64,000 nucleotides of DNA, from the NCBI GenBank assembly GCA_963798375.1, contig CAWCTG010000032.1:72232-136231 (forward strand). Reading direction: 5' to 3'. How positions within the stretch are numbered: the stretch's first letter is position 1; each line of letters starts with the position of its first letter. The DNA is from Candidatus Binataceae bacterium. GTDB lineage: Bacteria; Desulfobacterota; Binatia; Binatales; Binataceae. The notes beneath the pieces were generated by a model. It was not told where the DNA came from. It saw nothing but the letters and a program-made list of their open reading frames with translations, and made no database searches. Position numbers and translations under genes: made by a program. Of the stretch, positions 4,011 to 57,457 are shown in pieces.

Positions 4011-4140
4011 GCGGGCGCGATCAGGCGCGCTCGGTCATTGTGACATTCACGCCGGGCTCGGGATCGATCCGACCAGCCCGCACGCGGTGAGGCTGACGGG
4101 CGCCGGCAAGTAGCCGGCTTGTCTCATCCAGATCACGGAA

Positions 4141-4682
4141 CCGCCGGGGCGAATTAATCGCTCCGGCGGTTCAACTTCCTTCCACGTTTTCGAATACCGG
4201 GTGGGGCTTACACCGAGTATCGCGAAAGCGTCCGAACATCCTGCTCGCGGCCCATCGAACAGCGCATCGCCGGTTCAGCTCCAATGGCGATGATGTCAAA
4301 TCTTAACCCGACGCTATCATCTGTAGGTCAAATATGTCGCAAAATGAGTCATTTTGTATCAAAGTTGCCATCGGCCATCCCACGTGCTGATTTTCAGCGC
4401 AATTTCACGATATAAAACCTGCCTCTGAACGGTTTGACACAATTTAGCATACTTTATATAAGTATAGTGCTCGGAAGCTCGATTCATTTGTCCTCTGCTT
4501 AGCGAGAGATCTGCGATGAATCGCCTGCATAGTCATGAGCATGGTCAAGTCCTGGCGCTGGCCGCCGCTTCGATAGAGGCGCTGATCGGCTCCCTGGCGA
4601 TCGTTCCGTCCACAGGTTCACGAAACTCTGTCGGACGCGCGCCGGGCGCAGCAGCGACCGCGGCTTTCCGGGGGGAATCGTG
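4141..4682. repeat. Copy 2 of duplicated promoter/leader module upstream of the intact NHL-repeat gene
   Basis: ~85% nucleotide identity to 1-568. Confidence 0.8.
4434..4462 (+). promoter_or_regulatory. Candidate sigma-70 promoter TTGACA-N17-TATAAG for the NHL-repeat gene (about 220 nt of leader follows)
   Basis: Near-consensus -35 and -10 hexamers with a 17-nt spacer in an AT-rich patch. Copy 1 has the weaker TTGGAC-N17-TAGAAG at 325-353. Confidence 0.4.
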
Positions 4683-4683
4683 A
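4516..4683 (+). CDS. Conserved 55-codon upstream ORF in the leader. Its TGA overlaps the ATG of the NHL gene (TGATG). The copy-1 homolog is at 406-546.
   Basis: ORF MNRLHSHEHGQVLALAAASIEALIGSLAIVPSTGSRNSVGRAP... is conserved in both leader copies (MNRRRSRERGQVLALATASIDALMGSLAIV...). Copy 1 has a GGAGGG SD. The ORF could still be non-coding conserved leader. Confidence 0.3.
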   Translation: MNRLHSHEHGQVLALAAASIEALIGSLAIVPSTGSRNSVGRAPGAAATAAFRGES

Positions 4684-42337: not shown

Positions 42338-43395
42338 TTGCCGACGGCGGGCGCCCGAAATGGAGACGGCAATATGGAGGGGGAACGCAGCTCGCGAAAG
42401 TTTTGGGCAGGTCTTTTGGTGGCGCTGGTCGCGTTTGGAATCGCCTCCCTGGTTTCATCGCCCCCCGCAATCGGCATGGAAGGCACCCTGCTTTCCCAAG
42501 CCACAGGATCGGGGACCCGGCTACCGCCGGGCTATGTCCATAATGACACCTGCACCAGTTGCCATGATGTATCGGTCAAGTCCTTCCGCAAGACAATGAT
42601 GGGCCATCTTATGATGGGCCAGCCGCGCGACGAGGAGGAAGGCCTCGCGTGCCAGGCCTGTCATGGTCCCGGCCGCGAGCATCTACGCCATCCGAGCAAG
42701 CCGTCGCCGGGATTTCTGAGTTTTCGCGAGACCACCTTCACCGACATCAAGATTGAGAACGACCGGTGCCTCGCATGCCATCAAAACGGCGAGCGCGGGT
42801 TCTGGCGAGCCAGCGCCCACGCCGAGCGCGGCATTCGATGCGTTGATTGCCACGCCGTGATGTGTCCGGTGACGGCGAGCGCGCTGCCGCAGGCGCAACT
42901 CAAGAAGTCACCGCTTGGCACTGAATTCATCAACCCGTTCGTCGTGACGCGGCCCGAAACGCAGGTCTGCCTGCGCTGCCATCTCGACAAAAAGATGGAA
43001 ATCAATTTGCCGTCGCACATGCCGCTGCGCGAGGGGTTGATGACGTGCACCGACTGCCACAACCCGCACGGCGGACCGTATCAGAAGCAATTGCGGGCGG
43101 CGATGGTCAATGAGGTCTGCTACCGCTGTCATGCCGAAAAGCGCGGGCCGTTCCTCTGGATGCACGCGCCGGTGGCGATGAACTGCCTCAATTGCCATAT
43201 CCCGCACGGCAGCGTCAACCAGCACATGCTGGTGATCAACATGCCGGTGCTCTGCCAGCGCTGCCACATCGGCACCCGTCATCCGAGTGAGCCACAGAGG
43301 GGGGGTCAATTTTCGTGATCAACCAGCAATGCGCCAATTGCCATTCGCAGATACACGGCTCGAGCTCGCCGGGCGGGAGATATTTCACGCGCTGA
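42338..43395 (+). CDS. Periplasmic decaheme c-type cytochrome, MtrA/MtoA/PioA family. The reading frame is broken at the G7 run 43299-43305, which places the tenth CXXCH (CANCHSQIHGS) in the +1 frame.
   Basis: Nine CXXCH motifs in ORF 42338-43318 (CTSCH, CQACH, CLACH, CVDCH, CLRCH, CTDCH, CYRCH, CLNCH, CQRCH). The next frame reads INQQCANCHSQIHGSSSPGGRYFTR*, a typical MtrA-family C-terminus. N-terminal signal/anchor present. Confidence 0.8.
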
Positions 43396-43466
43396 AGCGG
43401 GAGGCAGAGGAACGCACGGCATCGCTGGGCCGCACCGCGTCTTGCAGCCGGCCCGGGAGGAAAGTC

Positions 43467-45722
43467 ATGAACCTGAAGCGGTTGTTAGCCGGATGTGGAA
43501 CGATGGCGCTCGTGTTGTCGATGCTTTCGCCGGCGCTGGCACAGGTCGATTTCGCGCAATTCACAGCGCAGGGTTCGGTCGAGGCCGGCGCCATTCCCCA
43601 GCCTGTCCCTTATACCAATGTCGCGGAGTATCAGCAGTACCGCGATCTGGCGCAGCAGTTCATCGTTCCGCAACTGCAGTTGATCCTGGGCGACAAGGCG
43701 GAGAACTACTACGTCCAGTTCGACGCCATCAACGTCGCGCAAAAGAACCAGATGTATTCGCTGCGCTTCGGCGAGTACGGTCTGCTCGATGTTCAGGCAA
43801 AATTCTTCGAGATTCCACACAACTTCAGCAACGGCATCGCGAGCACGCCGTACAACCAGGAAGGCGGCAACTTCACTCTATCCTCGAAGCCCACTGGTAC
43901 CGGCCCCGCGCTCGATTCCTGGCTGACAGCGAACGCCAAAACGTTCGACATGAGCCTGCTCGAAGGTGTCGCGGACATCGACGTGCGCTATACGCCGACG
44001 CCGTCGCTGACCTTCAGTGCGAACATGGATTACCAGAACCCCACCGGCCAACAGCCATTCGGCGGCTCCTTTCTGTTTGGCACCAGCCCGGGTACTTACA
44101 AAGTGAACGAACTGTTCCTGCCAATCCAGTACTACACCTATAACTTCGGCACCGGCATCGAATACGCGAAAAACGGATGGATGGTGGGTTTCCAGTACCA
44201 GGGGTCCTTCTTCGTCGACGACTACAGCACCCTGACCTGGGACAACCCCCTCAATACCAGCGGAGTAGGCAGCAAATGCGTTGATTCCACCGTTTTCACT
44301 TCCACCTCGCTCACCGGCCCCTGCCAGGGACGGGCAGCCATGTACCCGAACAACCAGGCTCACAACTTCATCGTGAACGGAACGGGTCAGCTTCCATTCA
44401 ACACACACGTGATGGGGAGCCTCGAGTACGGATTCTGGCTCCAGAACGCTCCCTTCATCCCGCTTACGGCCAACAGCAAGTTGCAGCAGTCATTAAGTTC
44501 GGTAGGAGCGCCTAATAGCCTCGGCGGCGACGTGCAGCCTTTCTTTGCCAACTTCACGATCGATAGCAATCCAATCGAACCGCTGGATCTAAAGGCGACC
44601 TATTCCTATTTCGATTACGACAACCTGACGCCGGCGATCACCTTCACAGGTGTTAAGTCGCTGAATGACGTAGCGGACGCGCAGACGCCTTTCACCGCTT
44701 ATCCCTTTGCATTCTCGGAGCAGGACGTCAGCCTCGAGCCAACCTACCGCCTGACTGATACTCTCGCCACACACTTTATGTTCAAGTGGCAGACCAACCA
44801 CAACGGCGGGCTGGAGGTGCTACAGCAGGATCAAACCAGCTACGGACCCGCGCTCGATTGGAACCCATACCCGTGGCTGACTTTCCGGGCGGACTACCAG
44901 CACGCGCACCGCGACTCGCCGGGATACAACAACAACCGCGCCAGCCTGGTCCAGGTGCTTGGCGGGACCCCGGGAGAGATCGAGGAGCTTCAGAGCCTCT
45001 GGCGGTTCGACGAGGCCACGCTCGATGTGAACCAGACCTCGCTCTATGCCTCCGCGCAGCCGATCGAACAACTCACGCTGTTCGCCGCCTTCAATTACGA
45101 CGACTATAACTACCCCAACAGCGACTTCGGCCTGGAGCACACTTCGGACTATTCGCCGTCGGTGGGGGCCAGTTGGGAACCGATGCCAGGCATGCACCTT
45201 TTTAGCGACTACTCCTGGCAGGCGTACGATTGGAACCTATGGTCACAGGACGAGACTACTATTCCGGCGGCGAAGCCTCCGCCTGGAAAAACGAACGCTT
45301 GGGAGGCCAGGGGCCGCAACCAGGGCAACAATATCGATTTCGGCACGGACATCGCGATACCGCCGAATCGCATTCTGCCGCGGCCGTCGCACCTGAAACT
45401 CCAGTACACCTACACGGTTGGCAACAACAGCACCCACCAATCGGGGGCTACCTCGGCCGGGGCGTCAGGGGAGGCGATCGACTATCCCGATGTCGGCAGC
45501 CAGTTCCAAGAGTTGATAATTCAGTACCAGTACGATTTGCTTGACAACCTGGCTATCAACGTCGGCTACTACTTCACTCACTCCAACGAAAACAATTTCA
45601 TGGTGGACAACATGAGGAACTACATGCCGAATGCAAGCGCAAATTCGACATTTCTCGGCAACACCGACATAGCTCCTTACAACGTCAATGTCGCATTCAT
45701 AACCCTGAAGTACAAATTTTAG
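43467..45722 (+). CDS. Large outer-membrane beta-barrel protein (~752 aa), MtrB/MtoB/PioB-like porin partner of the decaheme cytochrome
   Basis: Signal peptide MNLKRLLAGCGTMALVLSMLSPALAQ. Y/N/G/S/T/Q-rich with alternating amphipathic strands. Ends in an aromatic C-terminus ...AFITLKYKF. Sits immediately downstream of the MtrA-like gene. The listed ORF start 43287 is an artefactual upstream extension. Confidence 0.7.
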   Translation: MNLKRLLAGCGTMALVLSMLSPALAQVDFAQFTAQGSVEAGAIPQPVPYTNVAEYQQYRDLAQQFIVPQLQLILGDKAENYYVQFDAINVAQKNQMYSLRFGEYGLLDVQAKFFEIPHNFSNGIASTPYNQEGGNFTLSSKPTGTGPALDSWLTANAKTFDMSLLEGVADIDVRYTPTPSLTFSANMDYQNPTGQQPFGGSFLFGTSPGTYKVNELFLPIQYYTYNFGTGIEYAKNGWMVGFQYQGSFFVDDYSTLTWDNPLNTSGVGSKCVDSTVFTSTSLTGPCQGRAAMYPNNQAHNFIVNGTGQLPFNTHVMGSLEYGFWLQNAPFIPLTANSKLQQSLSSVGAPNSLGGDVQPFFANFTIDSNPIEPLDLKATYSYFDYDNLTPAITFTGVKSLNDVADAQTPFTAYPFAFSEQDVSLEPTYRLTDTLATHFMFKWQTNHNGGLEVLQQDQTSYGPALDWNPYPWLTFRADYQHAHRDSPGYNNNRASLVQVLGGTPGEIEELQSLWRFDEATLDVNQTSLYASAQPIEQLTLFAAFNYDDYNYPNSDFGLEHTSDYSPSVGASWEPMPGMHLFSDYSWQAYDWNLWSQDETTIPAAKPPPGKTNAWEARGRNQGNNIDFGTDIAIPPNRILPRPSHLKLQYTYTVGNNSTHQSGATSAGASGEAIDYPDVGSQFQELIIQYQYDLLDNLAINVGYYFTHSNENNFMVDNMRNYMPNASANSTFLGNTDIAPYNVNVAFITLKYKF

Positions 45723-45845
45723 GCCAAGCCTATTAAGGTACTTGGAGCGAGAGGCCGGAACACAAACAACGAATGACCTATCGTCCGCGGCGGCCCGGCC
45801 CGCAAACCAATTGGCGGACAAGGATTGTAAGGAAGGAGAGAAGCT

Positions 45846-46259
45846 ATGTCGAAGAGTTTGAGAACGAAGATTCGATCGAGACTCTGGATTTGGACCGCGT
45901 CGGCCATACCAGCAGTTGCAGTGCTGGCGTTGATCTCAACCTGCGCCCGCGCAGCCGATCTCACGGCCGCGGCCGGCAGTTACTCGGATACCTGCGCTAA
46001 GTGTCACGGCCCGGCCGGCAAGGGCGATGGCCCCAAAGCGGCCGAACTGAAAGACAAGGACGGCAAGCCGGTCACCATCGGAGATTTATCCGATTGTGCC
46101 AAGATGAGCAAGATAACCGATGACGACATGTTCAAGGAGCTGAAAGAGGGCGGCGCGTCAGTAGGCAAGAGCAAGTTCATGACTCCCTATGGCGATGCGA
46201 TGGAGGACGACGAGATCAAAGGGCTGGTCGCTTATGTCAGAACCTTGTGCAAGAAGTAG
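45846..46259 (+). CDS. Monoheme class-I cytochrome c, secreted (MtoD/Cyc1-like candidate periplasmic shuttle), paralog 1
   Basis: Signal peptide; single CAKCH; conserved C-terminus LVAYVRTLCKK. Confidence 0.8.
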   Translation: MSKSLRTKIRSRLWIWTASAIPAVAVLALISTCARAADLTAAAGSYSDTCAKCHGPAGKGDGPKAAELKDKDGKPVTIGDLSDCAKMSKITDDDMFKELKEGGASVGKSKFMTPYGDAMEDDEIKGLVAYVRTLCKK

Positions 46260-46280
46260 CGGCGCGCGCCACATCGGCGA

Positions 46281-46406
46281 TCGACTGTATCAATACTGGC
46301 ACCCGGTTCCATGAGTTGATATTTCAGTGCGAGTACGATTTTGCGCGATAACATCGCGTCATCGCAGGCTACTACTCCAGCAATTGTGGCGAACATAATT
46401 TCATGG
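46281..46406 (+). repeat. Degraded duplicate of the porin-gene 3' region (cf. 45480-45603), footprint of a tandem segmental duplication that generated the second monoheme cytochrome gene
   Basis: ~75% identity by direct alignment. Both cytochrome genes end ...tgcaagaagtagcggcgcgcgcca. Both have an AAGGAAGGAGAG-type SD. Confidence 0.7.
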
Positions 46407-46423
46407 AGGGAAGGAGAGGAGCA

Positions 46424-46825
46424 ATGAGAACTAAGATTCGATCGATACTGTGGGTTTGGACCGTGTCGGCCATACCGGCGGTTGCAGCGCTGGCGTTGAT
46501 CTCAACCGGCGCCCGCGCAGCCGATCTCACGGCCGCGGCCAGCAGTTACTCGGATACGTGCGCTAAGTGTCACGGCCCGCTCGGCAAGGGCGACGGCCCC
46601 AAAGCTGCCGAACTGAAAGACAAGGACGGCAAGGTGGTCCCCAGCGGAGATTTGTCCGATTGCGCCAAGATGGCCAAGGTTACTGACGACGACATGTTCA
46701 AGGAGCTCAAGGAAGGCGGCCAGGCGGTCGGCAAGAGCAAGTTCATGACTCCCTATGGCGACGCGATGGAGGACGACGAGATCAAGGCGATGGTTGCGTA
46801 CGTCAGAACCTTGTGCAAGAAGTAG
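46424..46825 (+). CDS. Monoheme class-I cytochrome c, paralog 2 (tandem duplicate of 45846-46259)
   Basis: MRTKIRSILWVWTVSAIPAVAALALIS...CAKCHGP...MVAYVRTLCKK; ~85% aa identity to paralog 1. Confidence 0.8.
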   Translation: MRTKIRSILWVWTVSAIPAVAALALISTGARAADLTAAASSYSDTCAKCHGPLGKGDGPKAAELKDKDGKVVPSGDLSDCAKMAKVTDDDMFKELKEGGQAVGKSKFMTPYGDAMEDDEIKAMVAYVRTLCKK

Positions 46826-47113
46826 CGGCGCGCGCCAGGCTCCAGAATGAGCCTCGGCGCGCGGGGTTGAAAGCGAGCAGTCTCAGGCAGCGGCCGGCTT
46901 GTAGTTCGCCGGCGGTGTCGCGCAGCAGTTGTACTCGCGCTCGCCCTGACCACTCAAAGCTGGCAAGTGAAAGGCCTCGCACTGGTAACCGGCTGAACCT
47001 CACCAGAGAGCGACCCAGGACAAGCGGGTCCGATCCCAGGGATCGGACCGCTTGCCGCTCGGAAACCGGGCGTCGCTTCCCCAGATTTTCGAGAGAAGCT
47101 ACGCAGGTGGAAT

Positions 47114-48655
47114 ATGCAAACGAGCGGAGATGAGCCGGGCGCACCGGGATCGGAGCGCCCGGCACGGCAAAATGGCGCCGAGGCCGAACGCCAATTACCA
47201 AGCCTGGCTCGCAACCGGCTGAGCATCGCCGGCCTGATCATCGCCGTCATCGTCTTGGCGGACATGGTTTCCCTGGCTGGCATGACGCTGCTAGGGGTGC
47301 AGTTGAACCCCTACGTCGGCATTTTTGCCTACCTGATCGGTCCGGCCGTCATGATATTCGGCCTGTTGCTCATTCCGGCCGGGATGGCACTCGAACGGCG
47401 ACGGCGCCGGAAGTTTCTGCCGGGTGAGCTGCCGCCCTTTCCCAAGCTCGATCTCAACGAGCCTTCGGTTCGGCGCGGCTTTCTCGGCGCGGTAGGCTTT
47501 TCGATGTTTTTTGTGGTTCTGAGCCTGGCGGCAAGCTACCAAGGCTACCAGTTCACGGACTCGGTGATGTTCTGCGGCCAGACCTGTCACGTCCCGATGA
47601 AGCCGGAATTCGACGCCTACCAGGATTCGCCGCACGCGCGGGTCGCATGCGCGGACTGCCACGTAGGACCCGGCGCCACTTGGTTTGTTCGCTCCAAGCT
47701 GTCGGGCGCCTATCAGGTCTATGCGGTAATGTTCAACAAGTACCCCAGACCGATTGAAACCCCCATCAAGGATTTGCGCCCGGTTCAGGCAGCCTGCGAG
47801 CAATGCCATTGGCCGCAGAAGTTCTACGGCGCGCAACTCAAGGTCTTCGCGCATTATGCCTACGACGAGAAGAACACGCCCACGCGCATCCAGATGCTGA
47901 TCAAGACCGGAGGAGGAGCTGCCGAGTTCGGCCGCGCCACCGGAATCCACTGGCACATGAACATCGCCAACCAAGTATGGTTCGCGGCTACTGACACGCA
48001 GTCCCAGGTGATTCCATGGGTGAAGGTAAGGACCCCCGACGGAAGGACCACGGAATACACTGCCAAGGGCACTTCGCTGACCCCAAAGCAGATTGCGGCG
48101 ATTCCCATCCAGACGATGGACTGTGTGAGCTGCCATGCCCGCCCGTCCCATAAGTTTCTTCCGCCCGATCAGGCGGTCGATGCGTCGTTCGAGGCGGGCC
48201 AGCTCGACCCTACGCTTCCCTTCTTGAAGAGGCAGGCGGTCAAGGCTCTGCTCAAGCGCTATGACACGTCGGAACACGCGACCGAGGGAATCGCCACCGC
48301 CCTCGATACCTTTTACCAGGATCGCTATCCCCAGATTTATGCCGCCAAGGCGCAGCAAATCGGGGCCGCCATTGCCGCCGTGCAGCACATCTACACAACC
48401 AACATCTTTTCGTTTATGCGGGTTGATTGGCGCACGCATCCCGATAACATCGGCCACCTTTATTACGCGGGATGCTTCCGCTGTCACGACGGGCAGCACG
48501 TCAGCGCCGATGGCCGGGTGATACCCCAGCAATGCGAAACCTGTCACACGGTCCTTGCATCTCCCAACAGTGTCGCCGAGTTCAAGCATCCAGTTGATCT
48601 GAACGATGTAGGCGGCGCGACCTGCAGCACCTGTCATACCGGAGGCGTCCTGTAA
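47114..48655 (+). CDS. Membrane-anchored heptaheme c-type cytochrome, NapC/NirT-related (ImcH-like candidate quinol/quinone oxidoreductase)
   Basis: Two N-terminal TM helices; seven CXXCH (CGQTCH, CADCH, CEQCH, CVSCH, CFRCH, CETCH, CSTCH); 513 aa. Confidence 0.7.
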   Translation: MQTSGDEPGAPGSERPARQNGAEAERQLPSLARNRLSIAGLIIAVIVLADMVSLAGMTLLGVQLNPYVGIFAYLIGPAVMIFGLLLIPAGMALERRRRRKFLPGELPPFPKLDLNEPSVRRGFLGAVGFSMFFVVLSLAASYQGYQFTDSVMFCGQTCHVPMKPEFDAYQDSPHARVACADCHVGPGATWFVRSKLSGAYQVYAVMFNKYPRPIETPIKDLRPVQAACEQCHWPQKFYGAQLKVFAHYAYDEKNTPTRIQMLIKTGGGAAEFGRATGIHWHMNIANQVWFAATDTQSQVIPWVKVRTPDGRTTEYTAKGTSLTPKQIAAIPIQTMDCVSCHARPSHKFLPPDQAVDASFEAGQLDPTLPFLKRQAVKALLKRYDTSEHATEGIATALDTFYQDRYPQIYAAKAQQIGAAIAAVQHIYTTNIFSFMRVDWRTHPDNIGHLYYAGCFRCHDGQHVSADGRVIPQQCETCHTVLASPNSVAEFKHPVDLNDVGGATCSTCHTGGVL

Positions 48656-48679
48656 GCGAATCGGCGCGGCGCAGGCGGT

Positions 48680-50056
48680 GTGAGACAAATGACGCACGGA
48701 TCAGGGCGTATGGTTAGCTCAGGGCGGACGGTTAGCGGCCTCGGGCGCGCCGCGTGCGCTATTGCGGCAATGCTGCTGTACGCAGTTGCAACGGCGCAGG
48801 CCGCTCCGACCAAGGCCGCTCCGCCGAAGGCCGCTAAGACGACGAGAGCCGGTAAGACGACGAAAGCCGCTCCGGCGAAGCCGCTCACCGATAGCGATTG
48901 CCTGTCCTGTCATAATCTTAAGGCCAGCGCCAAGTTACAGGCGCGGCCGGTTAGCGTGTACGTCAATGCGGAGATATACCAGCCCTCGGTCCACGCGAAG
49001 CTGGGTTGTGTCTCCTGCCATTCTGACATCCATGCCTTTCCTCATCCCGATCCGGTCAAGCCGGTTTCCTGCGCCGGCTGCCACGCGAGTGAGACTTCGG
49101 CCTATGCGGGCAGCGTTCACGCTATCGCCGAGCGGGAGAAGAAGAGCCGCTTTCCGGCCTGTCTCAATTGTCACGGAAACCCCCACGGCCTCCGCGCCAA
49201 GACTGACCCGAAGTCGCGAGTTTACCCGCTCAACCTGCCGGGCACCTGCGGCACCTGCCACGGTAACCCCGAGCTTGCCAAGAAATATGGCTTGCCGGAC
49301 GTGTACCCGCTCTACATGGATTCGATTCACGGCTTCGCGCTGAGTGCCGACGGGCTCCTGGTGGCTGCCACCTGCAGCAAGTGCCATGGCGCGCACGATA
49401 TCCTCAGCCGAAAGGACCCGAAGAGCCGGATCTTCTATAAAAATGTGCCTGCCACCTGTGGCGCGTGCCATGCCGGCGTCGAAGTCGAGTACCTTGCCGG
49501 AGCGCACGGCGCGGCGATGATCGCCGGGCGCGCGAATGCTCCGGTATGCACGAATTGCCATACCTCGCATCAGATTACCCAGGTGGACGTCGCTAGCTGG
49601 CAAATCAAAACCGTCGCCACCTGCGGTAACTGTCACAAGACCAGGCTTAGGAGCTACGGCGATACTTTCCACGGCGAGGTGACCGAGCGCGGCTTCGTCT
49701 CCGCGGCGCAATGCTGGAGTTGCCATGGCGCTCACGAAGTTCTTAAGGCCTCCAATCCCAAGTCCAAGGTCGCGCCGGCCAACCTTCTCACCACCTGCGG
49801 CAAGTGCCACGTCGGCGCAACCGCTAGCTTTGTCAAGTACGATCCGCATCCCAATGCGCACGAGCGGCGGCGCAACCCGGCCCTGTATTACGCGGCTCTA
49901 TGCATGGGACTGCTGCGTTTGATTGACCCATTCGGACTGATGGCTGTTGGCGTGGTGCTCGCAATTACGCTCGCTCACGGAATCGGCCAGATCGTGCGGT
50001 ATAACACGGGGACGGACCACTCGGACTCTGACCGCCATTCGGGAGATGAAAAATGA
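48680..50056 (+). CDS. Undecaheme (11 x CXXCH) c-type cytochrome with Sec signal and C-terminal hydrophobic helix
   Basis: CLSCH, CVSCH, CAGCH, CLNCH, CGTCH, CSKCH, CGACH, CTNCH, CGNCH, CWSCH, CGKCH counted. Repeated ...DPKSR... spacing. C-terminal TM LYYAALCMGLLRLIDPFGLMAVGVVLAITLAH. Confidence 0.8.
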   Translation: MRQMTHGSGRMVSSGRTVSGLGRAACAIAAMLLYAVATAQAAPTKAAPPKAAKTTRAGKTTKAAPAKPLTDSDCLSCHNLKASAKLQARPVSVYVNAEIYQPSVHAKLGCVSCHSDIHAFPHPDPVKPVSCAGCHASETSAYAGSVHAIAEREKKSRFPACLNCHGNPHGLRAKTDPKSRVYPLNLPGTCGTCHGNPELAKKYGLPDVYPLYMDSIHGFALSADGLLVAATCSKCHGAHDILSRKDPKSRIFYKNVPATCGACHAGVEVEYLAGAHGAAMIAGRANAPVCTNCHTSHQITQVDVASWQIKTVATCGNCHKTRLRSYGDTFHGEVTERGFVSAAQCWSCHGAHEVLKASNPKSKVAPANLLTTCGKCHVGATASFVKYDPHPNAHERRRNPALYYAALCMGLLRLIDPFGLMAVGVVLAITLAHGIGQIVRYNTGTDHSDSDRHSGDEK

Positions 50057-50145
50057 CCTACGTCGTAGTTGATCCCGTAACGCGCATCGAGGGCCATCTA
50101 CGGATCGAAGCCGAGCTTGACGGCGGCAAGGTGAGGATTCTGTGA
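50053..50145 (+). pseudogene. 30-codon remnant of a [NiFe]-hydrogenase large subunit (N-terminal L1 motif fused to a short C-terminal tail), start/stop-coupled between the 11-heme cytochrome and cytochrome b
   Basis: MTYVVVDPVTRIEGHLRIEAELDGGKVRIL*. VVDPVTRIEGHLRIE matches the universally conserved N-terminus of NiFe hydrogenase large subunits (cf. E. coli HyaB LVVDPITRIEGHMRCEV). Its ATG overlaps the upstream TGA (ATGA) and its TGA overlaps the GTG of the cytochrome b gene. Confidence 0.65.
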
Positions 50146-50843
50146 GTGCGCCACCGCGGCTTGTGCCCGAGCCACCTGGCACTGGCCTTGTTTATGTCTG
50201 GCAACTGCCAGTGCGTTTGTCGCACTGGTTGATCGTCATATCGATAGCTGTGCTAGCGGTTACCGGCTACTTCATCGGCAATCCGTTAATAACAACCGGC
50301 GGACCTGCAAGGGATCGCATCGTCGCAGCCACCATGCGCAGCATCCATCTCTACGCCGCGTGGGTGTTTGGTGTGTCGGTGGTCGTGCGGGTTTACTGGA
50401 TGTTCGCCGGCAGTTACTACGCGCGTTGGGACCAGTTCATTCCGGTCTCGCGCGACCGGCTCAATAGCGTCTGGCAGGCGATGAGGTTTTATAGCTTCCA
50501 GCGCCGCGGCCCACAGCTTTATCCGGGTCATAGCGGCCTTGCCGCGCTGGCTTATACGGGCATCTTCATGATCTACTTTATGGAGATCGTCACCGGCCTG
50601 GCCCTGTACTTCATCTATGCTCCGGCGAATTCGGTCTTTCAGGGTTTTCGCTTTTTAGTCCCAATCTACTCTCGCTTTCTCCACCATATCGGGATGTGGA
50701 TCTTGTTGATGTTCGTGATTCAGCACGTGTACTCGACGATTCTTTTTTCGGTCGAGGAGCGCAGTGGAATCATCGACTCGATGTTCACAGGCTACAAGCG
50801 CATAAGCCCGGAAGCCGAGGAGGAGGCGCATCGCGATGCCTGA
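50142..50843 (+). CDS. Dihaem b-type cytochrome of the Ni/Fe-hydrogenase (HyaC/HydC/FdnI-like) family, membrane quinone-interacting subunit
   Basis: Four TM helices with conserved His (RLSHWLI..., IHLYAAW, HHIGMWILLMFVIQHVYS); family-typical R-x-x-H-W at TM1. Confidence 0.8.
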   Translation: MSAPPRLVPEPPGTGLVYVWQLPVRLSHWLIVISIAVLAVTGYFIGNPLITTGGPARDRIVAATMRSIHLYAAWVFGVSVVVRVYWMFAGSYYARWDQFIPVSRDRLNSVWQAMRFYSFQRRGPQLYPGHSGLAALAYTGIFMIYFMEIVTGLALYFIYAPANSVFQGFRFLVPIYSRFLHHIGMWILLMFVIQHVYSTILFSVEERSGIIDSMFTGYKRISPEAEEEAHRDA

Positions 50844-50891
50844 CGAGTTACTCGAACTCATGAACGCCGCTATCACACAAGGAGAATCGCA

Positions 50892-51656
50892 ATGATATTC
50901 GGTGTAGTCATCTTAATCGCCGCAATCTTCATTCTGAGCGGGGTCAAAGTCCTTAACGAATATCAGCGCGCCGTAGTCTTCCGCCTGGGGCGGCTCATGC
51001 GGTACCGCGGCCCCGGCATAATTTACGTGGTCCCCCTGGTGGAGCGGATGGTCCGGATCGATCTGCGTACCGTCGTGCTCGACATCCCGCCGCAGGACGT
51101 AATCACCAAGGACAACGTGACCGTCAAGGTGAGCGCGGTGCTCTACTTCCGGGTGATCGATCCGTCGCGCGCGGTCACCGAGGTGGCAAATTACCTGTTC
51201 GCCACCATGCAGCTCGCGCAGACCACCCTGCGCTCCGTTGGCGGACAGACCGAACTCGACGAACTTCTGAGCCAGCGCGACAAAGTCAACGCGCGCATCC
51301 AGGCGATCGTCGATGCCCAAACCGAGCCGTGGGGAATCAAGGTCATGCTCGTCGAGCTGAAGAACATTGATCTGCCGCAGGACATGCAGCGCGCGATCGC
51401 CGCCCAGGCCGAGGCCGAGCGCGAACGGCGCGCCAAGGTGATCGCGGCCGAGGGCGAATTTCAGGCGGCGCAGCGCCTGGCCGAGGCGGCGGAAATCATG
51501 GGCAAAAGCCCGATCACGCTCCAGCTTCGCTACCTGCAGACGCTTGCCGAGATCGCGACCGAGCATAATTCGACCACCGTGTTTCCCCTCCCGATCGATC
51601 TGCTCGAGCCCTTTCGCAAGCTGGCAGGCGGCGGCGACGCCGACAAGCCGAAGTAA
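50892..51656 (+). CDS. SPFH/band-7 (stomatin/prohibitin-like) membrane protein
   Basis: N-terminal TM; SPFH core [18 protein letters not shown]...; C-terminal coiled coil [22 protein letters not shown]. Confidence 0.85.
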
Positions 51657-51954
51657 GGGGAGGTCATCGCGGCGCCGTGGACAGATGGCGCCGGCAGTGG
51701 TCGGATCGCTGAGCTGATTTCGACGACGGCCCTGGGCACGCCTGATTGTGGTTGACAAAAGCTTGGAATAAATGTTGCTGATGCTTTAAAGTAAGCGGAT
51801 GAAGGGAGGCTAATGCGTTGGGAAAAACGGAACTGAGGATGCTATCGTCGCACGATGTTCCCAACCATTGTGTCTCAAACGAATACACCTGTGTAGCCTT
51901 TCGTCATGATGTTTGGTAGCGAAGCGAAACGCCTTAGACAAAAGAAGGAGCAGA

Positions 51955-52368
51955 ATGGTCATGTCAGAAAATTCACCGGCGAAGATTCGATCGAAGGGCT
52001 GGAGCTGGACGCCCTTGGCGGCGGGAGTAGCGATGATGCTGGCGCCGGCATTGATCCCAACCGTCGTACGTGCCGCCGAAGTCGATCTGAAGGCCGCGGC
52101 CAGTAATTATTCGGATTCGTGCGTGGACTGCCATGGTGAGTCGGGCAAAGGCGACGGTAAAAAGGCGGCCGACCTGAAGGTCAAGCCCGCCGACTATACC
52201 AATTGCGCAGAGATGACGAAGTTGAGCGACGATTATCTCTTCAACGTCATCAAAAACGGCGGCAAGTCGGTGCACAAGAGCGAGGCCATGGCCGACTTCG
52301 GCAAGGCCTACGACGACGACGAGATTCACGGGCTTGTCGCCTACGTCCGCACGTTCTGCAAAAAGTGA
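51955..52368 (+). CDS. Monoheme class-I cytochrome c, third and more divergent paralog
   Basis: Signal peptide; CVDCHGESGKGDG; C-terminus LVAYVRTFCKK. Confidence 0.75.
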   Translation: MVMSENSPAKIRSKGWSWTPLAAGVAMMLAPALIPTVVRAAEVDLKAAASNYSDSCVDCHGESGKGDGKKAADLKVKPADYTNCAEMTKLSDDYLFNVIKNGGKSVHKSEAMADFGKAYDDDEIHGLVAYVRTFCKK

Positions 52369-52917
52369 GTGCGGCTAGCCGTGCCCGACGGTAATCGCGC
52401 ACAATTTGCGGTCTCGGAAGCCGGCGAAGTTATCGAGAGCGAACCGCGGCGGAAGTTCCTGGCGCGTCTGTTCTGGGGCGCGATGGCCATTGTCAGCGCC
52501 GCCATCGCGGCGCCCGTCATTTCCTATCTGATTATCCCGCTGTTGCGGCCGGGTGAGTCCAACGATTGGGTAAAGATGGGAAACATCGCCGACCTTCCGC
52601 TCAACCTTCCCCAGCGGCTCGAGGTCGGCCGGCGCGTGGTCGAGGGATGGGAAACGGACGATTCGCAGGTGACGGCCTGGGTGGTGCGGATGCCGGACAA
52701 AATCTACGTTTTCGATCCGCATTGCACGCACTTGGGATGCGCCTACCGATGGGTCGAGCAGGAAAAGCAGTTCTTCTGCCCATGCCATGCCGGCGTATTC
52801 AGCCTAACCGGGCAGGTGGTCAGCGGCCCTCCCCCACGTCCGCTGGACGTTTACGCGCACGAGGTCCGCGAGGGCGCCCTTTATGTGGTCCCGACTCCAA
52901 CTAAGCAAGTGGTTTGA
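52369..52917 (+). CDS. Rieske [2Fe-2S] iron-sulfur protein with twin-arginine signal
   Basis: RRKFLARL Tat motif; Rieske boxes CTHLGC and CPCHAGVF; GTG start directly after the upstream stop. Confidence 0.85.
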   Translation: MRLAVPDGNRAQFAVSEAGEVIESEPRRKFLARLFWGAMAIVSAAIAAPVISYLIIPLLRPGESNDWVKMGNIADLPLNLPQRLEVGRRVVEGWETDDSQVTAWVVRMPDKIYVFDPHCTHLGCAYRWVEQEKQFFCPCHAGVFSLTGQVVSGPPPRPLDVYAHEVREGALYVVPTPTKQVV

Positions 52918-54619
52918 CGAGCGCCTCGGCACGCGGGCGATCCGCGTCGCGCTCTTCGATCGCAACATTCCGAAAAGCAGCCCGCTGGTCGAGTGGATCT
53001 ACACGCTCGGCAGCGTGCTGCTGTTCTTTTTCATCCTTCAAGCAGTGACCGGCATGATGCTGGCGATGAACTATGTGGCCAGCCCCGATCACGCCTTCGA
53101 CGCCGCGCGTTACATCTCGCTGCGCGCTCCCATGGGCCAGTTCATCCGTGGGCTTCATTCGTGGGGCGCAACCGCGATGGTGGTGGTGATCGGCGCGCAC
53201 ATGCTGACCACCTTTCTCTCCGGCAGCTACAAGTATCCGCGCGAATCGACCTGGATTACCGGCGTCGTCCTGTTCCTGATCGTGATGTTGTTCGGATTCA
53301 CCGGATATCTGCTGCCCTGGAACCAGAAGTCGTACTGGGCGACCGTGGTCGGCACCAACATCGCGGGCGCGACTCCCTACATCGGGCAGTACATCGTGCG
53401 CTTCTTCCGCGGTGGCAGCGAGGTCGGCCCGCAAACGTTGACCAGATTCTACGCCCTGCACGTGCTGATGCTGCCGGCGGCGCTGATCGTTTTCGTCTCG
53501 GTGCATCTTTTCATGGTCGTGCGCCAGGGCATCTCGGCGCCTCCCAAGCGGCATCCCGAATACGGCCGCCACGGTATCAACGCCCAGCTCGGCATCGACC
53601 CCGGGCTTGGTGTCGGCACCCAGCTCAGCGTCGACGACCAGCGCAGCCGGGCGGCCGACGAATATCATCACGAGAAAGAGGCCGGCGAGTCCTTCTATCC
53701 GTTTTATCTGTCCAAAGACGCTGTCGCCGTGCTGCTGGCGCTTTCGGTGCTGGTGATTTTGGTCTTGAAGTATCCGGCCGAGATCGGCGAGATCGCCGAC
53801 CCCGCCAGCACCAGCTACAATCCGCGCCCGGACTGGTACTTCCTGTTCCTGTTCCAGGCGCTCAAGTATTTTCCCGGCAGCATGGAATCGGTCGCGGCAG
53901 TCATGCTGCCGGGGCTTGCGTTGCTGGTCCTCGTCACAGTGCCCTTCTTCGATCGGCGGATGCGCCAGCATCCGCTGGACCGCCCGATCGCAACCGGCTT
54001 TGCGCTCTCCACGCTGGTCGGCGTGATCGCGTTGACCGTGATCGGCGCGCGATCGCCGCTGCTCAACCCATATGTGCCGGAGCTGCCGACCGTCGCCGAG
54101 GGTCACCGGCTCTTTCACACGCTCAATTGCGCATACTGCCACGCCGTCAATGGCCGCGGGAGCAGGATTGGGCCCGATCTGATGCTGGATCCCCTCAAGC
54201 ACGACAAGGCTTGGATAGTCCTCCATCTCGAGCGGCCCGGCGAAGTCTTTCGGCCCGGCGCCCGCACCGCAATGACCGGATTGTTGCCGGAGGAAAGCGC
54301 GGACCTGTTCGACTACATCAATGAGCTGCAGGGCGGCGGCCCCTATAGCGACAAGGCGTCCCGGCTGTTCTACCGAAATTGCGGCAAGTGCCACATGGTG
54401 GCAGGCCACGGCGGCGCCAAGGCTCCCGATCTGAGCGGAATCGGGCTGGTGCGGTCGGTTTCGTTCATCCACCGCTACATCGAGGATCCGAAGGCCCTCT
54501 ACAGCCAGACCAAGATGCCGCCGTTCTTGCAGCCGCAGGGCAAGCTGACCCACCCCGAAATCGAGGACATCGCGCGCTTTCTCGCGCATCAGCGCACACC
54601 GGCGCCACCTAAAAACTGA
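52883..54619 (+). CDS. Cytochrome b (b6 plus subunit-IV-like, fused) with a C-terminal dihaem cytochrome c domain: the cytochrome b/c subunit of a Rieske/cyt b complex
   Basis: Cytochrome b6 N-terminus LSKWFDERLG; haem-ligating His in TM helices; PEWY-like region PDWYFLFLFQALK; two C-terminal CXXCH (CAYCH, CGKCH). Confidence 0.85.
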   Translation: MWSRLQLSKWFDERLGTRAIRVALFDRNIPKSSPLVEWIYTLGSVLLFFFILQAVTGMMLAMNYVASPDHAFDAARYISLRAPMGQFIRGLHSWGATAMVVVIGAHMLTTFLSGSYKYPRESTWITGVVLFLIVMLFGFTGYLLPWNQKSYWATVVGTNIAGATPYIGQYIVRFFRGGSEVGPQTLTRFYALHVLMLPAALIVFVSVHLFMVVRQGISAPPKRHPEYGRHGINAQLGIDPGLGVGTQLSVDDQRSRAADEYHHEKEAGESFYPFYLSKDAVAVLLALSVLVILVLKYPAEIGEIADPASTSYNPRPDWYFLFLFQALKYFPGSMESVAAVMLPGLALLVLVTVPFFDRRMRQHPLDRPIATGFALSTLVGVIALTVIGARSPLLNPYVPELPTVAEGHRLFHTLNCAYCHAVNGRGSRIGPDLMLDPLKHDKAWIVLHLERPGEVFRPGARTAMTGLLPEESADLFDYINELQGGGPYSDKASRLFYRNCGKCHMVAGHGGAKAPDLSGIGLVRSVSFIHRYIEDPKALYSQTKMPPFLQPQGKLTHPEIEDIARFLAHQRTPAPPKN

Positions 54620-56267
54620 TCCGCGCGCCCCCCGCCGATCCCCTAAAAGCTGTTGAAATTGGAGTGGCGGTCATCCTCGCCCGATCGGAAGATCGGGTGG
54701 AGTTTAACGAGGAGGACGCCCTGAGGAAGGGTGCCAAGAGGTGAGGGAGTGGAAAGACAGCCGTTGGCGAAGGACAACTGTGGTTGCGATATGCGGGTTT
54801 GTACGCGAGGCGAAGTTCGGCCGATCGCTGGCAACGGAATCCGCGCCTGTCAGCAAATGTGGATAGCCGAATCTGCATTGCGTCAGCGCGAGAGGCGAAC
54901 CGTGAAGCGACAAGCGGAGGATGCCGCTAATGAGAATTCACGAGAACGAGAACCGGAATGTCCGAACTAAAGACAAATGGAAGAATGCAAGCAGGATTCA
55001 AGAACGCTCAACTTGAAGCAGACTGTCGAGAACGTCTTCGACAGAAGCTGACAGTTGCGTCAATGAGGCGGCATGCCTTCCTGGTAGTACGAACACCATA
55101 ATGATTCCCAGTTTCTCGAATTTGCCGAGGTTGGACAAACTCAGGGCACTTGCTATCGAACTTAATTCCGCACTGCTCGAAGAATTCGACTCTTACAATG
55201 ACGTTCCTCTAGACGAGCGGTCGCTTCTCAAAAGGGAAGGCTGAGAACTTAGCGCGATGGGATACGGGCCGATTTGGATCATACTGGGCGCGGGCGTCTG
55301 CCCGATCCGATGAAACATGTTCAAAGCGATAGCGAGCCTCGCTCGCGCTTGTGGGCCGTTTTCGTGGCTGGCACTCTTAAGAATTCTTTGGCATTTGGCG
55401 GCGGAAAGCCGATAGCAAGTAGTGGGTTCGAATTTTGTGACTAACCGGGGGACTGTTTATGTCGATTTTTCGGACCGCTCTCGGTATGCGCCACGGCTAT
55501 GGGATCAGGGAGTGGCGCAGCGCCTCCTTGAGCAGCCACCATGGAGCTCTTAGCGGAGAGTCCGACGCCCACGGGGATGCTGGCATGCGAGAATAATAAG
55601 AGTCACGCAATCAGTTTCACCATGTCGGAAAGTCGAAAAAAGTGCCAAACGATATCGCGCTCGATGGCCCAGGCCCGCAGGGCCCGCCGGGTCCAGCCTC
55701 GACAACTATCGTCCCAACCGCCTCGCAGGTCTGCGATTGCTATTGTACCGCACCCCCGTGCGATTACAATTCCCCGAACGCAGAAGTTGTTTCGCAATGC
55801 CCGGATGGTGAAGTCGTCGTCGGCGGCACCTACACCTTCGACTTTGACGAGTATTATAATAAAGCCTTTGATTTCTGGGCAGTTCGGCTTGCGGGCTTCC
55901 CGATCTCACGCGGTGACCGATGGGTTATGTCGGATAGCGCTTGAGGTCGATTCACCGTCCACTGAATCAACACGGCTATACCAACGGTTTTCCGAGCTGA
56001 TGCAGGGCAGCGCTACTGTATTGCCTACCGTCGAAGCCACCCCATCGGTGTCATACGACGGGGATTCGGCGTCGTCACCGAAGAAGAAGTAGCGACACGG
56101 AAAGGAGAGCCTGAGGGAAGAAAAGTCTTTTTGGCATACCGTCACGTCCGCCAGGTCGAACTGAGCCCGCAGCACTGCGACTTATCGTCATCGAGCGCGA
56201 GCGTACTCGCGGCCTTGAGATTTGCGACAGACGCGACGAATAGCGTCCGCTTCGATCACTCCGATGA

Positions 56268-56651
56268 CTACTTCGAACGCTTTTCTGCCGAAAAGGAACC
56301 AATGGCTTTTTCTGCTTTTTGCAGACGGTCTAGCTCCTCACGCTTATGTCTATCCTGATCGAGAATTAAAAAGATCGCCTGCTTAAGCATCTCAAAGGCG
56401 TTGAGGCATTGAGTCTCCTCAAGTTCGTGGATACCAATCGATAAAATCGCATATACCTTTTTGTTGCGAACAAGAAACTCCGGCAGGTGGTGCTTAAGGA
56501 ACTCAATCTTCTCTTCCATGCGCTTGCCAACGAAGTCGGCGTCCTTCCAGCCTTCTGGCGCCTTGAATTCTTCGAACCGCCGTGTGATCAGCCTTTCGAA
56601 TACACGCCGCAGATAGACGAAAGAACCGACGCTCGACGCCGTGGGCGGCAA
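56268..56651 (-). CDS. Hypothetical protein in low-GC island (K/E-rich, 127 aa)
   Basis: Longest ORF in the AT-richer island; no recognisable motif. Confidence 0.3.
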   Translation of the reverse strand: MPPTASSVGSFVYLRRVFERLITRRFEEFKAPEGWKDADFVGKRMEEKIEFLKHHLPEFLVRNKKVYAILSIGIHELEETQCLNAFEMLKQAIFLILDQDRHKREELDRLQKAEKAIGSFSAEKRSK

Positions 56652-57457
56652 GCCGATTGCTCGATGGAGTTCTACGCCGTCGACTGGGTTAAGAACCTGT
56701 CGATAGTTGCGGCTTTCGTCGTTGGCTATATCTGAAGCGAAGGGTACTGCCCGATTTTTTAAATCAGCGGCTTCTTGAGCTTCAACACAAAAAGGATTGT
56801 GTGCTTCGCGTTACGGGCACAGGCAATTTCGAAACCGAGAGCCGGAATATTTTCGACCGCATATTTGAGGTTCCCGATCTCTATATCGCCAGCAGTGCGG
56901 CTAAGCGTGGGAGCCTTATGGAAGTGCGGGCAGTACCCATCTACGACATGAGGGTGATTGAACATATAGAATATGCCACGCCGCTGTCGCCCAGTTTGGC
57001 AGAGTCGAAATCATACTCGGCATACAGGGGTGCACCGAACAGAAAGTCCTGAATTGAAGATAGCAACGGGAATTTAGGCCCAGAATTGGATTCGGAAATT
57101 TCCGTAGAGTCCATTCTTTCGTATCATGTTGCAACCCGATTTCGACCCCGCGCCAACGACAGTGCGCAGCCAGCTTGGAAGGAAATCGCGCCGTGGGCCG
57201 CCCCTTGCGCGCGGCGGCGAGAAGGCTTGTCGAAAGGTCGTGCCAAACGACTGACAAACCGTGCAGAAATAGACCGAGCAGCATCGACCTGATTTCGACA
57301 AAACCTTTATTTAAGGCGCGTTTTGTTCTTTCACGGATCGAATGCTCGAACTGCTAAGAATGAGAGCCTGTTCCACGCGCGCGCGAACGCGTATAGTCAG
57401 AGGGACCGATCCAGCCACTGTGCATTCTCAAAACTCTGACACCTAGGTGAAGCATCC

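Follow-up and report, generated by a model that had tools for sequence, protein, structure and literature searches.

An apparent [NiFe]-hydrogenase operon rebuilt around an 11-haem cytochrome c in bacteria related to Binataceae

Introduction

Multihaem cytochromes c combined with b-type cytochromes of the HydC/FdnI type are known from the proteins CbcL, MtoC and MtrH, which act as quinol oxidase or quinone reductase in extracellular electron transfer and are often encoded beside mtoAB or mtrAB (PMC6295460). A b-type cytochrome also forms a complex with hydrogenase-1 (Hyd-1), the structure of which is 4GD3, as cited in PMC6981441. The hydrogenase small subunits HyaA and HybO are held in the membrane by one C-terminal helix (PMC10924467, PMC5902676), and the last 15 residues of the large subunit are cleaved off at maturation (PMC5902676). 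Members of the Binatota carry such hyaABC genes (bioRxiv 10.1101/2020.09.14.296780). Here we describe a locus in a 64,000-nucleotide (nt) stretch from a Candidatus Binataceae bacterium (contig CAWCTG010000032.1), the whole of which we refer to as the window, that consists of a gene for an 11-haem cytochrome c, a very short open reading frame (ORF), called mini-ORF in the following, and a gene for a HyaC-type cytochrome b. Comparison with relatives indicates that this locus is a hydrogenase operon of which the catalytic parts have been replaced by the multihaem cytochrome c, and of which the small-subunit membrane anchor and HyaC have been retained. A module of cytochromes c and b is of a known kind; a literature search found no description, in the searchable literature, of a hydrogenase-anchor chimera accompanied by hydrogenase fossils, and a 2026 preprint on extracellular electron transfer in peat does not mention it. 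All coordinates are positions in the window, and the locus and its flanking respiratory genes all lie on the + strand.

Results

The cytochrome c carries the membrane anchor of a hydrogenase small subunit

The cytochrome c gene (48680-50056) encodes 458 residues with 11 CxxCH motifs, the mini-ORF (50053-50145) has 30 codons with the translation MTYVVVDPVTRIEGHLRIEAELDGGKVRIL, and the cytochrome b gene (50142-50843) encodes 233 residues. The ATG of the mini-ORF overlaps the stop codon of the cytochrome c gene (ATGA), and its own stop codon overlaps the GTG start codon of the cytochrome b gene (GTGA). A preliminary description of this DNA had placed the three ORFs and both 4-nt overlaps at these very positions, and the sequence bears this out.

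The body of the cytochrome c (48680..49918) comprises a signal-peptide-like N-terminus, the 11 CxxCH motifs, which span residues 74-373, and the first third of what used to be its own membrane helix (..NPALYYAALCMGLL); translation may in fact begin at an internal ATG, for instance at 48689. The protein has Pfam matches to cytochrome c7, cytochrome c3 and Paired_CXXCH, and belongs to a family with 2848 database matches at E<=1e-10. Over 86-92% of the query it shares 72-80% identity with its closest canonical paralogues, and the named relatives of both this cytochrome and the cytochrome b come from Candidatus Binatus soli and Binataceae. The window protein and each of the 7 chimeric orthologues described below have the eleven haem-binding motifs. 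The canonical paralogues terminate in another helix than the window protein (..ALFMNLLLLGVFLFFGLHTALWL.. or ..NPALYYAALFMNLLLLGVFLFFGLHTALWLVRS..), and the family-typical C-terminal helix, ..ALFMNLLLLGVF.FFG.HT.LW.., is missing in the window protein, where small-subunit sequence follows after ..ALCMGLL instead. Inspection of the N-terminus revealed no twin-arginine motif, and the protein is expected to be exported via Sec, with haem attachment in the periplasm, and not via twin-arginine translocation (Tat). Since the twin-arginine motif is absent, the C-terminal tail is presumably also inserted by Sec stop-transfer and not by Tat.

The remaining part of the gene (49919..50056), encoding residues 414-458 (LIDPFGLMAVGVVLAITLAHGIGQIVRYNTGTDHSDSDRHSGDEK, followed by the stop codon), is an in-frame fusion of the C-terminal membrane helix and cytoplasmic tail of a hydrogenase small subunit, and it also holds the GGGAG ribosome-binding site (RBS) of the former large-subunit gene. 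When the small subunit of an intact relative (locus L005) was compared with the window by tblastn, only its residues 327-370 matched, at positions 49922-50053, with 57% identity (E=6e-8). Across the junction the window protein and its orthologues in the other chimeric loci (class A, see below) read ..NPALYYAALCMGLL directly followed by RLIDPFGLMAVGVVLAITLAHGIGQIVRYNTGTDHSDSDRHSGDEK, and the L005 small subunit ends in ..NLDRIGIGAAAVVGVASLAHGIGQIVRHHTGPKPSDSDGPSGGEK.

Calibration of the ratio of nonsynonymous to synonymous substitution rates (dN/dS) of this segment on intact operons was defeated by the variable overlaps between small- and large-subunit genes, and conservation columns from an alignment of 76 small-subunit tails of intact loci were used instead. 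Residues D416, G419, H433, G434 and R440 of the window protein are kept in all four chimeric sub-lineages, and the matching columns hold Asp in 99%, Gly in 100%, His in 95%, Gly in 96% and Arg in 83% of the 76 tails. The chimeric tail thus has D-x-[IV]-G at the start of the helix, H-G inside the helix, and then a basic residue and a hydrophilic tail. The conserved Pro-Gly-Phe (PGF) motif just before the junction is lost in the chimeras. Because the anchor residues are kept after the junction and PGF is lost before it, we place the fusion between residues 412 and 416, within the cytochrome's own former helix. The cytochrome c is therefore a chimera, its last 45 residues being the helix and tail of a hydrogenase small subunit.

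A search of the PDB with the cytochrome c tail gave no small-subunit match, solved structures mostly lacking this tail or diverging there, and the homology emerged only against close intact relatives. A similarity search with the 86-residue C-terminal fragment returned a single irrelevant canonical fragment (P0241), and no deeper-branching chimeras or intermediates. In W. succinogenes, quinone reactivity reportedly requires a histidine in the HydA membrane helix (Gross et al. 1998/2004), which we take as a lead only.

The mini-ORF combines both ends of a large-subunit gene

The 30-residue peptide encoded between the two cytochrome genes had been put forward as an N-terminal fossil of a [NiFe]-hydrogenase large subunit. 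For codons 1-27 (50053..50133; MTYVVVDPVTRIEGHLRIEAELDGGKV) the similarity indeed goes far beyond chance. When the peptide was compared with all PDB entries, the top 53 matches were hydrogenase large subunits or homologues, the best 50 of them (E up to 0.02) being [NiFe] or [NiFeSe] large subunits, and all matches fell within the first ~55 residues of the chain. The best one aligns peptide residues 4-28 with residues 9-33 of D. gigas HynB (E=8.7e-8), and the first 27 residues of the L005 large subunit are 81% identical to the mini-ORF over 27 residues (E=1.3e-8). A precomputed Pfam match to HoxH sits on the mini-ORF orthologue of locus L101. The last 3-4 codons are not N-terminal: the codon alignment assigns (V)RIL and the stop codon (50131..50145) to the C-terminal extension of the large subunit (..RVKVL, then stop). 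Within this short segment lie the purine-rich RBS for the cytochrome b gene and the overlap with the GTG start of that gene.

The composite nature of the mini-ORF is best seen in its different forms. Intact large subunits, the reference of the codon alignment, read MTHIVVDPITRIEGHLRIEAEVDGGKVSDAWS, SSTMF...ACG, and VHVVDTRRRELARVKVL before the stop codon. The longest mini-ORF, of 49 codons, is found in L002, L006 and L088 (e.g., MTHILVDPATRIGGHLRIEAEADGADVNDAWSVHVADAGRRELAHVRVL), and the partial sequence of L103, covering the last 39 codons, is consistent with it. This form corresponds to large-subunit residues 1-32 plus the last 17, and implies the in-frame loss of 519 codons (1557 nt; codons 33-551). 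Its 17 C-terminal residues are essentially the extension cleaved off by the maturation protease (PMC5902676). The mini-ORF has 30 codons in the window, L101, L086 and L087, and here a further deletion of 57 nt between two in-phase GTGAA repeats left residues 1-27 followed by (V)RIL and the stop. L001 has a form of 27 codons (MIYIRNDAWSVHLVAAGRRELACVRVL), the product of an independent 66-nt deletion of codons 5-26.

The translation signals of the ancestral operon are still present. The mini-ORF is preceded by the RBS TTCGGGAGATGAAAA, directly followed by its ATG, which lies within the small-subunit tail codons, and the cytochrome b gene by a purine-rich AAGG or GAGG, 4-8 nt from its start, within the last large-subunit codons; both arrangements are as in intact operons. 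The ATGA and [AG]TGA overlaps were kept in 7 out of 7 fully analysed loci.

The cytochrome b is of the HyaC type and is followed by a probable hycI remnant

The cytochrome b matches PF01292 (5.5e-26), passes the NCBIfam equivalog model TIGR02125, 'Ni/Fe-hydrogenase b-type cytochrome subunit', with 138.2 bits (cut-off 121.5), and aligns over its full length with E. coli HyaC (4gd3_A; E=1.6e-31), in agreement with the preliminary assignment to the hydrogenase/formate-dehydrogenase dihaem b family. H28, H69, H181/H182 and H195, four candidate haem-ligand histidines, are invariant in the alignment of this subunit (alignment A1), and the clade shares a specific deletion of 5 residues. A hydropathy scan gave three clear segments; the full-length alignment with HyaC suggests the four-helix arrangement of that protein. 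Between sub-clades dN/dS is 0.13-0.34 for the cytochrome b and 0.19-0.29 for the body of the cytochrome c, so that both are under purifying selection (dN/dS about 0.2-0.3). Since the 11 haem motifs, the four histidines and the low dN/dS are all kept, the module appears to be maintained.

Overlapping the 3' end of the cytochrome b gene is the ATG of an 8-codon sequence (50836..50859; MPDELLEL) that is probably the 5' remnant of hycI, the gene for the hydrogenase maturation endopeptidase. The N-terminus of the intact HycI of L005 reads ..TDELLVLGLGNLLLGDDGLGTAAVTRLE. Right after the cytochrome b stop codon L001 has VPDELAVLGNDGLGTAAVTSL, which is 76% identical to HycI over 17 residues (E=0.01), and by eye (alignment A2) includes a near-identical DNA block of ~29 nt, and L101 and L086 have MPDVLLLSGLGKL. 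In the window alone the match is weak, and it becomes clear as a series across lineages, which makes this assignment probable. Therefore, the inherited hydrogenase segment would have included at least the 3' end of hyaA, the 5' end of hycI and everything between them.

In the lineages with the 49-codon mini-ORF, a conserved ORF of 71-81 residues is located between the cytochrome b and SPFH genes (at about 4695-4940 in L088, 813-1058 in L103 and 8679-8894 in L002, and at the equivalent place in L006). It encodes a C-terminal membrane helix (..QQEQPLDYSRPGKAGALEMLR..VAVIAAGVGFSLLVLALISFW..) and is absent from the window lineage. We considered this ORF as a hycI derivative and rejected it, the similarity ending after the first three codons.

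Intact and rebuilt operons in related bacteria

To find related loci, we searched 5.8 billion proteins with the cytochrome b and fetched the contigs of the best matches. The chimeric architecture was found on 11 contigs besides the window (L001-L004, L006, L086-L088 and L101-L103, from NCBI, ENA, JGI and GTDB genomes), of which 10 show the mini-ORF region and one, L102, the chimeric multihaem cytochrome only. L086, L087 and L101 originate from peat and soil. With cytochromes b that are at least 83% identical to that of the window, L001, L002-L004, L006, L086/L087, L088, L101 and L103 form class A, in which the order is 11-haem cytochrome, mini-ORF, cytochrome b. Class B (L005, L089 and L091; cytochrome b 67-69% identical) contains the closest non-chimeric cytochrome b relatives with readable upstream DNA, and here the cytochrome b gene directly follows an intact large-subunit gene. 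L005 has a full operon, encoding a small subunit of 370 residues, a large subunit of 568 residues, cytochrome b, the HycI endopeptidase and HypFCDEAB; in L089 and L091, which were analysed in part, the intact C-terminus of the large subunit lies directly upstream of the cytochrome b gene.

We also scanned one genome per species, giving 357 relatives, and examined the best 80 of these 357 loci. A full or near-full-length large-subunit gene lies directly upstream in 77 of the best 80, accompanied by the small-subunit gene in 76 of the 77 (in L023 it falls off the contig). As to the other three, two have no readable upstream DNA, and only L006 is chimeric. In L080 the small- and large-subunit genes are in pieces (2927-5535), which could reflect either frameshift errors in long reads or another decaying hydrogenase operon. 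So far, the chimera is confined to a narrow clade of uncultured Binatia-like bacteria related to Binataceae.

The synteny comparison thus yielded both versions of the locus, with intact hydrogenase genes and with the cytochrome in their place, as the proposed descent from a hyaABC-type operon that lost its catalytic subunits would have it; the nearest non-chimeric cytochrome b genes follow intact hydrogenase genes. The phrase 'caught mid-evolution' in the preliminary description proved apt, in view of the longer and differently eroded fossils in sister lineages. Its proposal that both subunits were replaced or internally deleted holds for the large subunit, which is internally deleted; the small subunit is not wholly gone, its C-terminal anchor being fused to the cytochrome c. 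That fusion, the C-terminal large-subunit codons of the mini-ORF, and the hycI remnant had all been overlooked.

Cytochromes of the 11-haem family also occur near intact operons. In L009 (Binataceae) hycI is preceded by two HyaC-type cytochrome b genes in tandem (6001-6714 and 6825-7532), giving the order hyaA-hyaB-hyaC-hyaC2-hycI, and a match to this multihaem cytochrome family, 56% identical to the window protein over query residues 60-343 (tblastn), extends from ~8256 as far as the locus reaches. In L016, L017, L019, L020, L022, L023, L026, L030 and L033, metagenome-assembled genomes of Steroidobacteraceae and Alphaproteobacteria, tblastn matches to the window cytochrome c with 31-37% identity lie just after intact hydrogenase operons, about 1.8-3.4 kb beyond the cytochrome b gene, which suggests a wider association of hydrogenase and multihaem cytochrome genes. 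L002-L004 contain two more pairs of multihaem c and dihaem b genes within 8 kb (1-949 and 4499-6249), one encoding a 430-residue cytochrome with a 275-residue FdnI-like b, and the other, on the opposite strand, a 342-residue cytochrome with a 241-residue FdnI-like b; a two-component system lies between them.

Gene neighbourhood

Upstream of the locus, Pfam and NCBIfam matches, together with haem-motif counts, identify a DmsE/MtoA-family multihaem cytochrome (42338-43318), an MtrB/PioB porin (43287-45722), two monohaem cytochromes c (45846-46259 and 46403-46825) and a NapC/NirT-type membrane cytochrome (47114-48655). This order (42338..48655) is the same in L101, and the contig of L001 covers the two monohaem cytochromes and the NapC/NirT-type gene, again in this order. 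The tandem monohaem cytochromes, whose proteins are 87% identical, represent a recent duplication, and a related third one is located at 51913-52368, ahead of the Rieske gene. Downstream, Pfam matches identify an SPFH/Band-7 protein, a monohaem cytochrome c, and, for a bc-type complex, a Rieske protein and a cytochrome b-cytochrome c fusion (50892..54619). The downstream order is kept in the chimeric loci with long enough contigs (L001-L004 and L101).

The region that follows (54700-57400), ~2.7 kb in length, has a lower G+C content than its flanks (0.49-0.57 versus about 0.63), contains no tRNA gene, and has as its only sizeable ORF 55541-56092 (183 residues), which has no Pfam match. In the syntenic loci L003 and L004 no more than ~90 nt separate the cytochrome b/c gene from the radical-SAM/SPASM gene after it, which makes the region look like an insertion in the lineage of the window.

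Discussion

We consider it probable that this locus is a rebuilt hydrogenase operon that now encodes a two-subunit gate to the quinone pool, with the mini-ORF acting as a coupling relay. In the course of events to which the comparison points, an ancestor of a narrow Binataceae-related clade had a group-1 membrane-bound [NiFe]-hydrogenase operon (hyaA-hyaB-hyaC-hycI...), and the last ~45 codons of its small-subunit gene were joined to a copy of the gene for an 11-haem cytochrome c, which normally has its own C-terminal helix and an FdnI-like cytochrome b as partner, at a point within the part that codes for this helix. From the large-subunit gene codons 33-551 were lost in frame, leaving 32 plus 17 codons, hycI shrank to a few codons, and later in-frame deletions shortened the mini-ORF further, in the window lineage to 30 codons and in L001 to 27. 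The cytochrome c would be exported to the periplasm and docked on the HyaC-type dihaem b by the former small-subunit helix, with its haem chain substituting for the three Fe-S clusters and feeding or draining the b haems, and the pair would exchange electrons between the quinone pool and the periplasmic or outer-membrane cytochromes of the adjoining MtoA/MtoB-like conduit. The neighbouring genes, which encode a DmsE/MtoA-family cytochrome, an MtrB/PioB porin, two monohaem cytochromes c, a NapC/NirT-type protein and a bc-type complex, fit an inner-membrane quinone gate of extracellular or periplasmic electron transfer. By analogy, the most likely function is that of a two-subunit electron gate between quinone pool and periplasm, like CbcL or MtoC, in an MtoAB-like cluster.

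Several observations weigh against parts of this explanation. For the proposed docking of the two cytochromes by way of the inherited helix, the basis is homology with Hyd-1. The anchor segment evolves fast, with dN of 0.18-0.30 between sub-clades, and its nominal dN/dS of 0.85-2.5, which over 45 codons is noisy and of qualitative use only, fits a membrane helix that tolerates change, or adaptation, and equally a partial relaxation of selection. The primary deletion junction in the large-subunit gene shows no convincing microhomology, the Ser codon being different (TCG against AGC). A promoter and terminator scan of 45700-52400 gave the same counts as shuffled sequences. The cytochrome b gene has its own RBS, and coupling may hence be non-essential to it, and the argument from reading frame is based on three deletions, which is suggestive (P roughly 0.04 on the assumption of random deletion lengths modulo 3). 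Finally, the upstream neighbourhood differs between sub-clades, which bears on the question whether the operon was remodelled in place.

With regard to that question, it is possible, though we find it the less convincing course, that an existing cytochrome/bc cluster captured a hydrogenase fragment of ~1 kb, from the 3' end of hyaA to the 5' end of hycI, which displaced the FdnI-like partner of its cytochrome. The 64-kb window has no hyp genes or other hydrogenase genes, the flanks consist of respiratory and cytochrome genes, and canonical members of the cytochrome family are normally followed by a 275-residue FdnI-like cytochrome b, all of which would fit capture. Cytochromes of this family adjoin hydrogenase operons in relatives such as L009, and such adjacency offers a chance for recombination, although it provides the opportunity for capture and for remodelling in place alike. 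The hycI remnant implies that the inherited piece reached past hyaC, as decay in place also predicts. The end product is the same either way, and the data fit either order of events.

The role of the mini-ORF has to be weighed separately. Most likely, it is kept not for its peptide but because its two ends hold translation signals of both neighbours, and so serves as a spacer for translational coupling between the cytochrome c and cytochrome b genes, its open frame delivering terminating ribosomes exactly to the cytochrome b start. All three deletions (1557, 57 and 66 nt) are in frame, and no nonsense or frameshift change occurs in the 7 complete mini-ORFs (6 distinct sequences) and the partial one of L103, that is, over 27-49 codons, even though nonsynonymous substitutions reach up to ~0.2-0.25 per site. 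The alternative that the mini-ORF is a neutral leftover, with no translational or peptide role and with its frame kept by chance and by the essential signals at its ends, seems unlikely to us, yet deserves serious consideration. Its sequence does drift, the hallmark RIEGH being mutated in L002, L006 and L088 (e.g., to RAEGL or RIGGH), and different halves are gone in different lineages. In several pairs dN/dS is near neutral (0.3-1.2 for the N-terminal part, a segment of 26 codons that is too noisy for more than qualitative use), the purine-rich RBS belongs to the cytochrome b gene itself, and no more than three deletion events back selection on frame. A chance outcome fits less well with the uniformly in-frame deletions, the lack of stops and frameshifts, and the strict retention of both 4-nt overlaps. 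We find it very improbable that the mini-ORF encodes a functional micropeptide, for instance a small subunit stabilising the complex of the two cytochromes. It is intact, has a good RBS ahead and is kept in every chimeric locus examined, but the forms have no block of residues in common: the N-terminal part survives in the window and the C-terminal part in L001, all forms share no more than the first ~4 and last ~4 codons, the peptide is hydrophilic without a membrane segment, and the altered hallmark residues likewise speak against a peptide function.

There is very little to suggest that the entire locus is decaying, with both cytochrome genes on their way to becoming pseudogenes. The body of hyaA, hyaB and hycI have clearly been destroyed next to them, and the anchor has its high nominal dN/dS, but both cytochromes are full length in 7 diverged loci, with dN/dS of 0.2-0.3 and with all haem motifs, candidate haem-ligand histidines and conserved anchor residues kept. 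An artefact, a contig wrongly joining a cytochrome gene to a hydrogenase operon, might come to mind for an unusual architecture known from metagenome-derived sequences, but is virtually impossible to reconcile with the same junctions on 11 independently assembled contigs from different projects, with 80-99% identity and coherent lineage-specific variants.

The rebuilt operon offers a stepwise case of respiratory complexes being reassembled from modules, with intermediates preserved in sister lineages: a multihaem cytochrome took over from a hydrogenase both its membrane anchor and its quinone-reactive subunit. More tentatively, the small-subunit C-tail may be a portable module for docking on HyaC, and the gutted large-subunit gene may be actively kept as a frame-preserving coupling relay; we give this combined idea somewhat less than an even chance. 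If it is true, this would be a natural plug-and-play assembly of respiratory complexes, in which the electron-input domain was swapped whole, from Fe-S/NiFe to an 11-haem wire, and the interface between tail and cytochrome b was kept, and selection on the mini-ORF would be for its reading frame and not for its product. It predicts that a small-subunit tail with the conserved His-Gly suffices to dock a foreign redox domain on HyaC, which is relevant for the engineering of electron conduits, and the mini-ORF series is a natural test of whether translational coupling alone preserves an ORF. The locus also presents an annotation hazard, as a curated model for the hydrogenase b-subunit is passed where no hydrogenase exists, and surveys that count hyaC, or 30-residue 'HoxH' gene calls, would misscore these genomes as hydrogen oxidisers.

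Comparison with known systems

The Mto/Pio clusters (mtoA-mtoB-mtoD-cymA/mtoC) share with the window a DmsE-family cytochrome, an MtrB/PioB porin, monohaem cytochrome c, a NapC/NirT-type protein and a c plus b module, all on the same strand. In the window gene content and order differ, and the bc-type complex and the SPFH protein come after the module.

CbcL, MtoC and MtrH (of Geobacter, Gallionella, Dechloromonas and Rhodoferax) resemble the window pair in combining a periplasmic multihaem c with a dihaem b membrane domain, and the window pair likewise lies beside a DmsE-family cytochrome and an MtrB/PioB porin, a neighbourhood that is consistent with a CbcL-like or MtoC-like quinone activity. 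In sequence, the established link is the shared PF01292/FdnI-HydC superfamily. CbcL consists of a single chain that has about six membrane helices, whereas the window has two separate ORFs with the mini-ORF between them, a c-subunit whose one helix, at the C-terminus, derives from a hydrogenase small subunit, a b-subunit that is a bona fide HyaC orthologue according to TIGR02125, and hydrogenase fossils. The analogy with CbcL drawn in the preliminary description is thus reasonable in the sense of 'works like'; with two polypeptides in place of one, we do not claim membership of that family. It is possible that CbcL/MtoC-type proteins had a similar origin, from b-subunits of hydrogenases or formate dehydrogenases.

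With E. coli hydrogenase-1 (HyaABC, 4GD3) and other group-1 enzymes the locus shares the cytochrome b, the Asp, Gly and His-Gly of the small-subunit C-tail, gene order, the 4-nt overlaps and the RBS contexts. Unlike HyaABC, it has no catalytic large subunit (27 plus 3-4 codons remain), no Fe-S domain and no maturation genes, and its electron-input module is the 11-haem cytochrome c, without a twin-arginine motif. The mini-ORF stops before the N-terminal RxCGxC of large subunits and resumes after the C-terminal DPCxxC, and tblastn with the large subunit of an intact relative found no other match in the 64-kb window. Likewise, the small-subunit match is confined to the C-terminal residues 327-370, with neither a Tat signal nor the three-cluster Fe-S domain, and maturation genes are represented in the window by the 8-codon hycI remnant, without any hyp match. 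The window locus is not a hydrogenase; what it has of one are the HyaC-type dihaem cytochrome b and the C-tail.

The closest counterparts of the cytochrome c are found in the canonical pairs of 11-haem cytochrome c and FdnI-like b of Binatia and Acidobacteriota (e.g., P0126 and the 275-residue b in L002-L004), which follow the same tail-anchored logic and have a cytochrome c body 72-80% identical to that of the window, with the same 11 haem motifs. The canonical cytochromes keep the helix ..FFG[LVI]HT.LW.., whereas the window protein has the hydrogenase small-subunit helix from residue ~414 onwards, and the canonical partner is the 275-residue FdnI-like b, which matches TIGR01583 at E=2e-8 only, whereas the partner in the window is HyaC.

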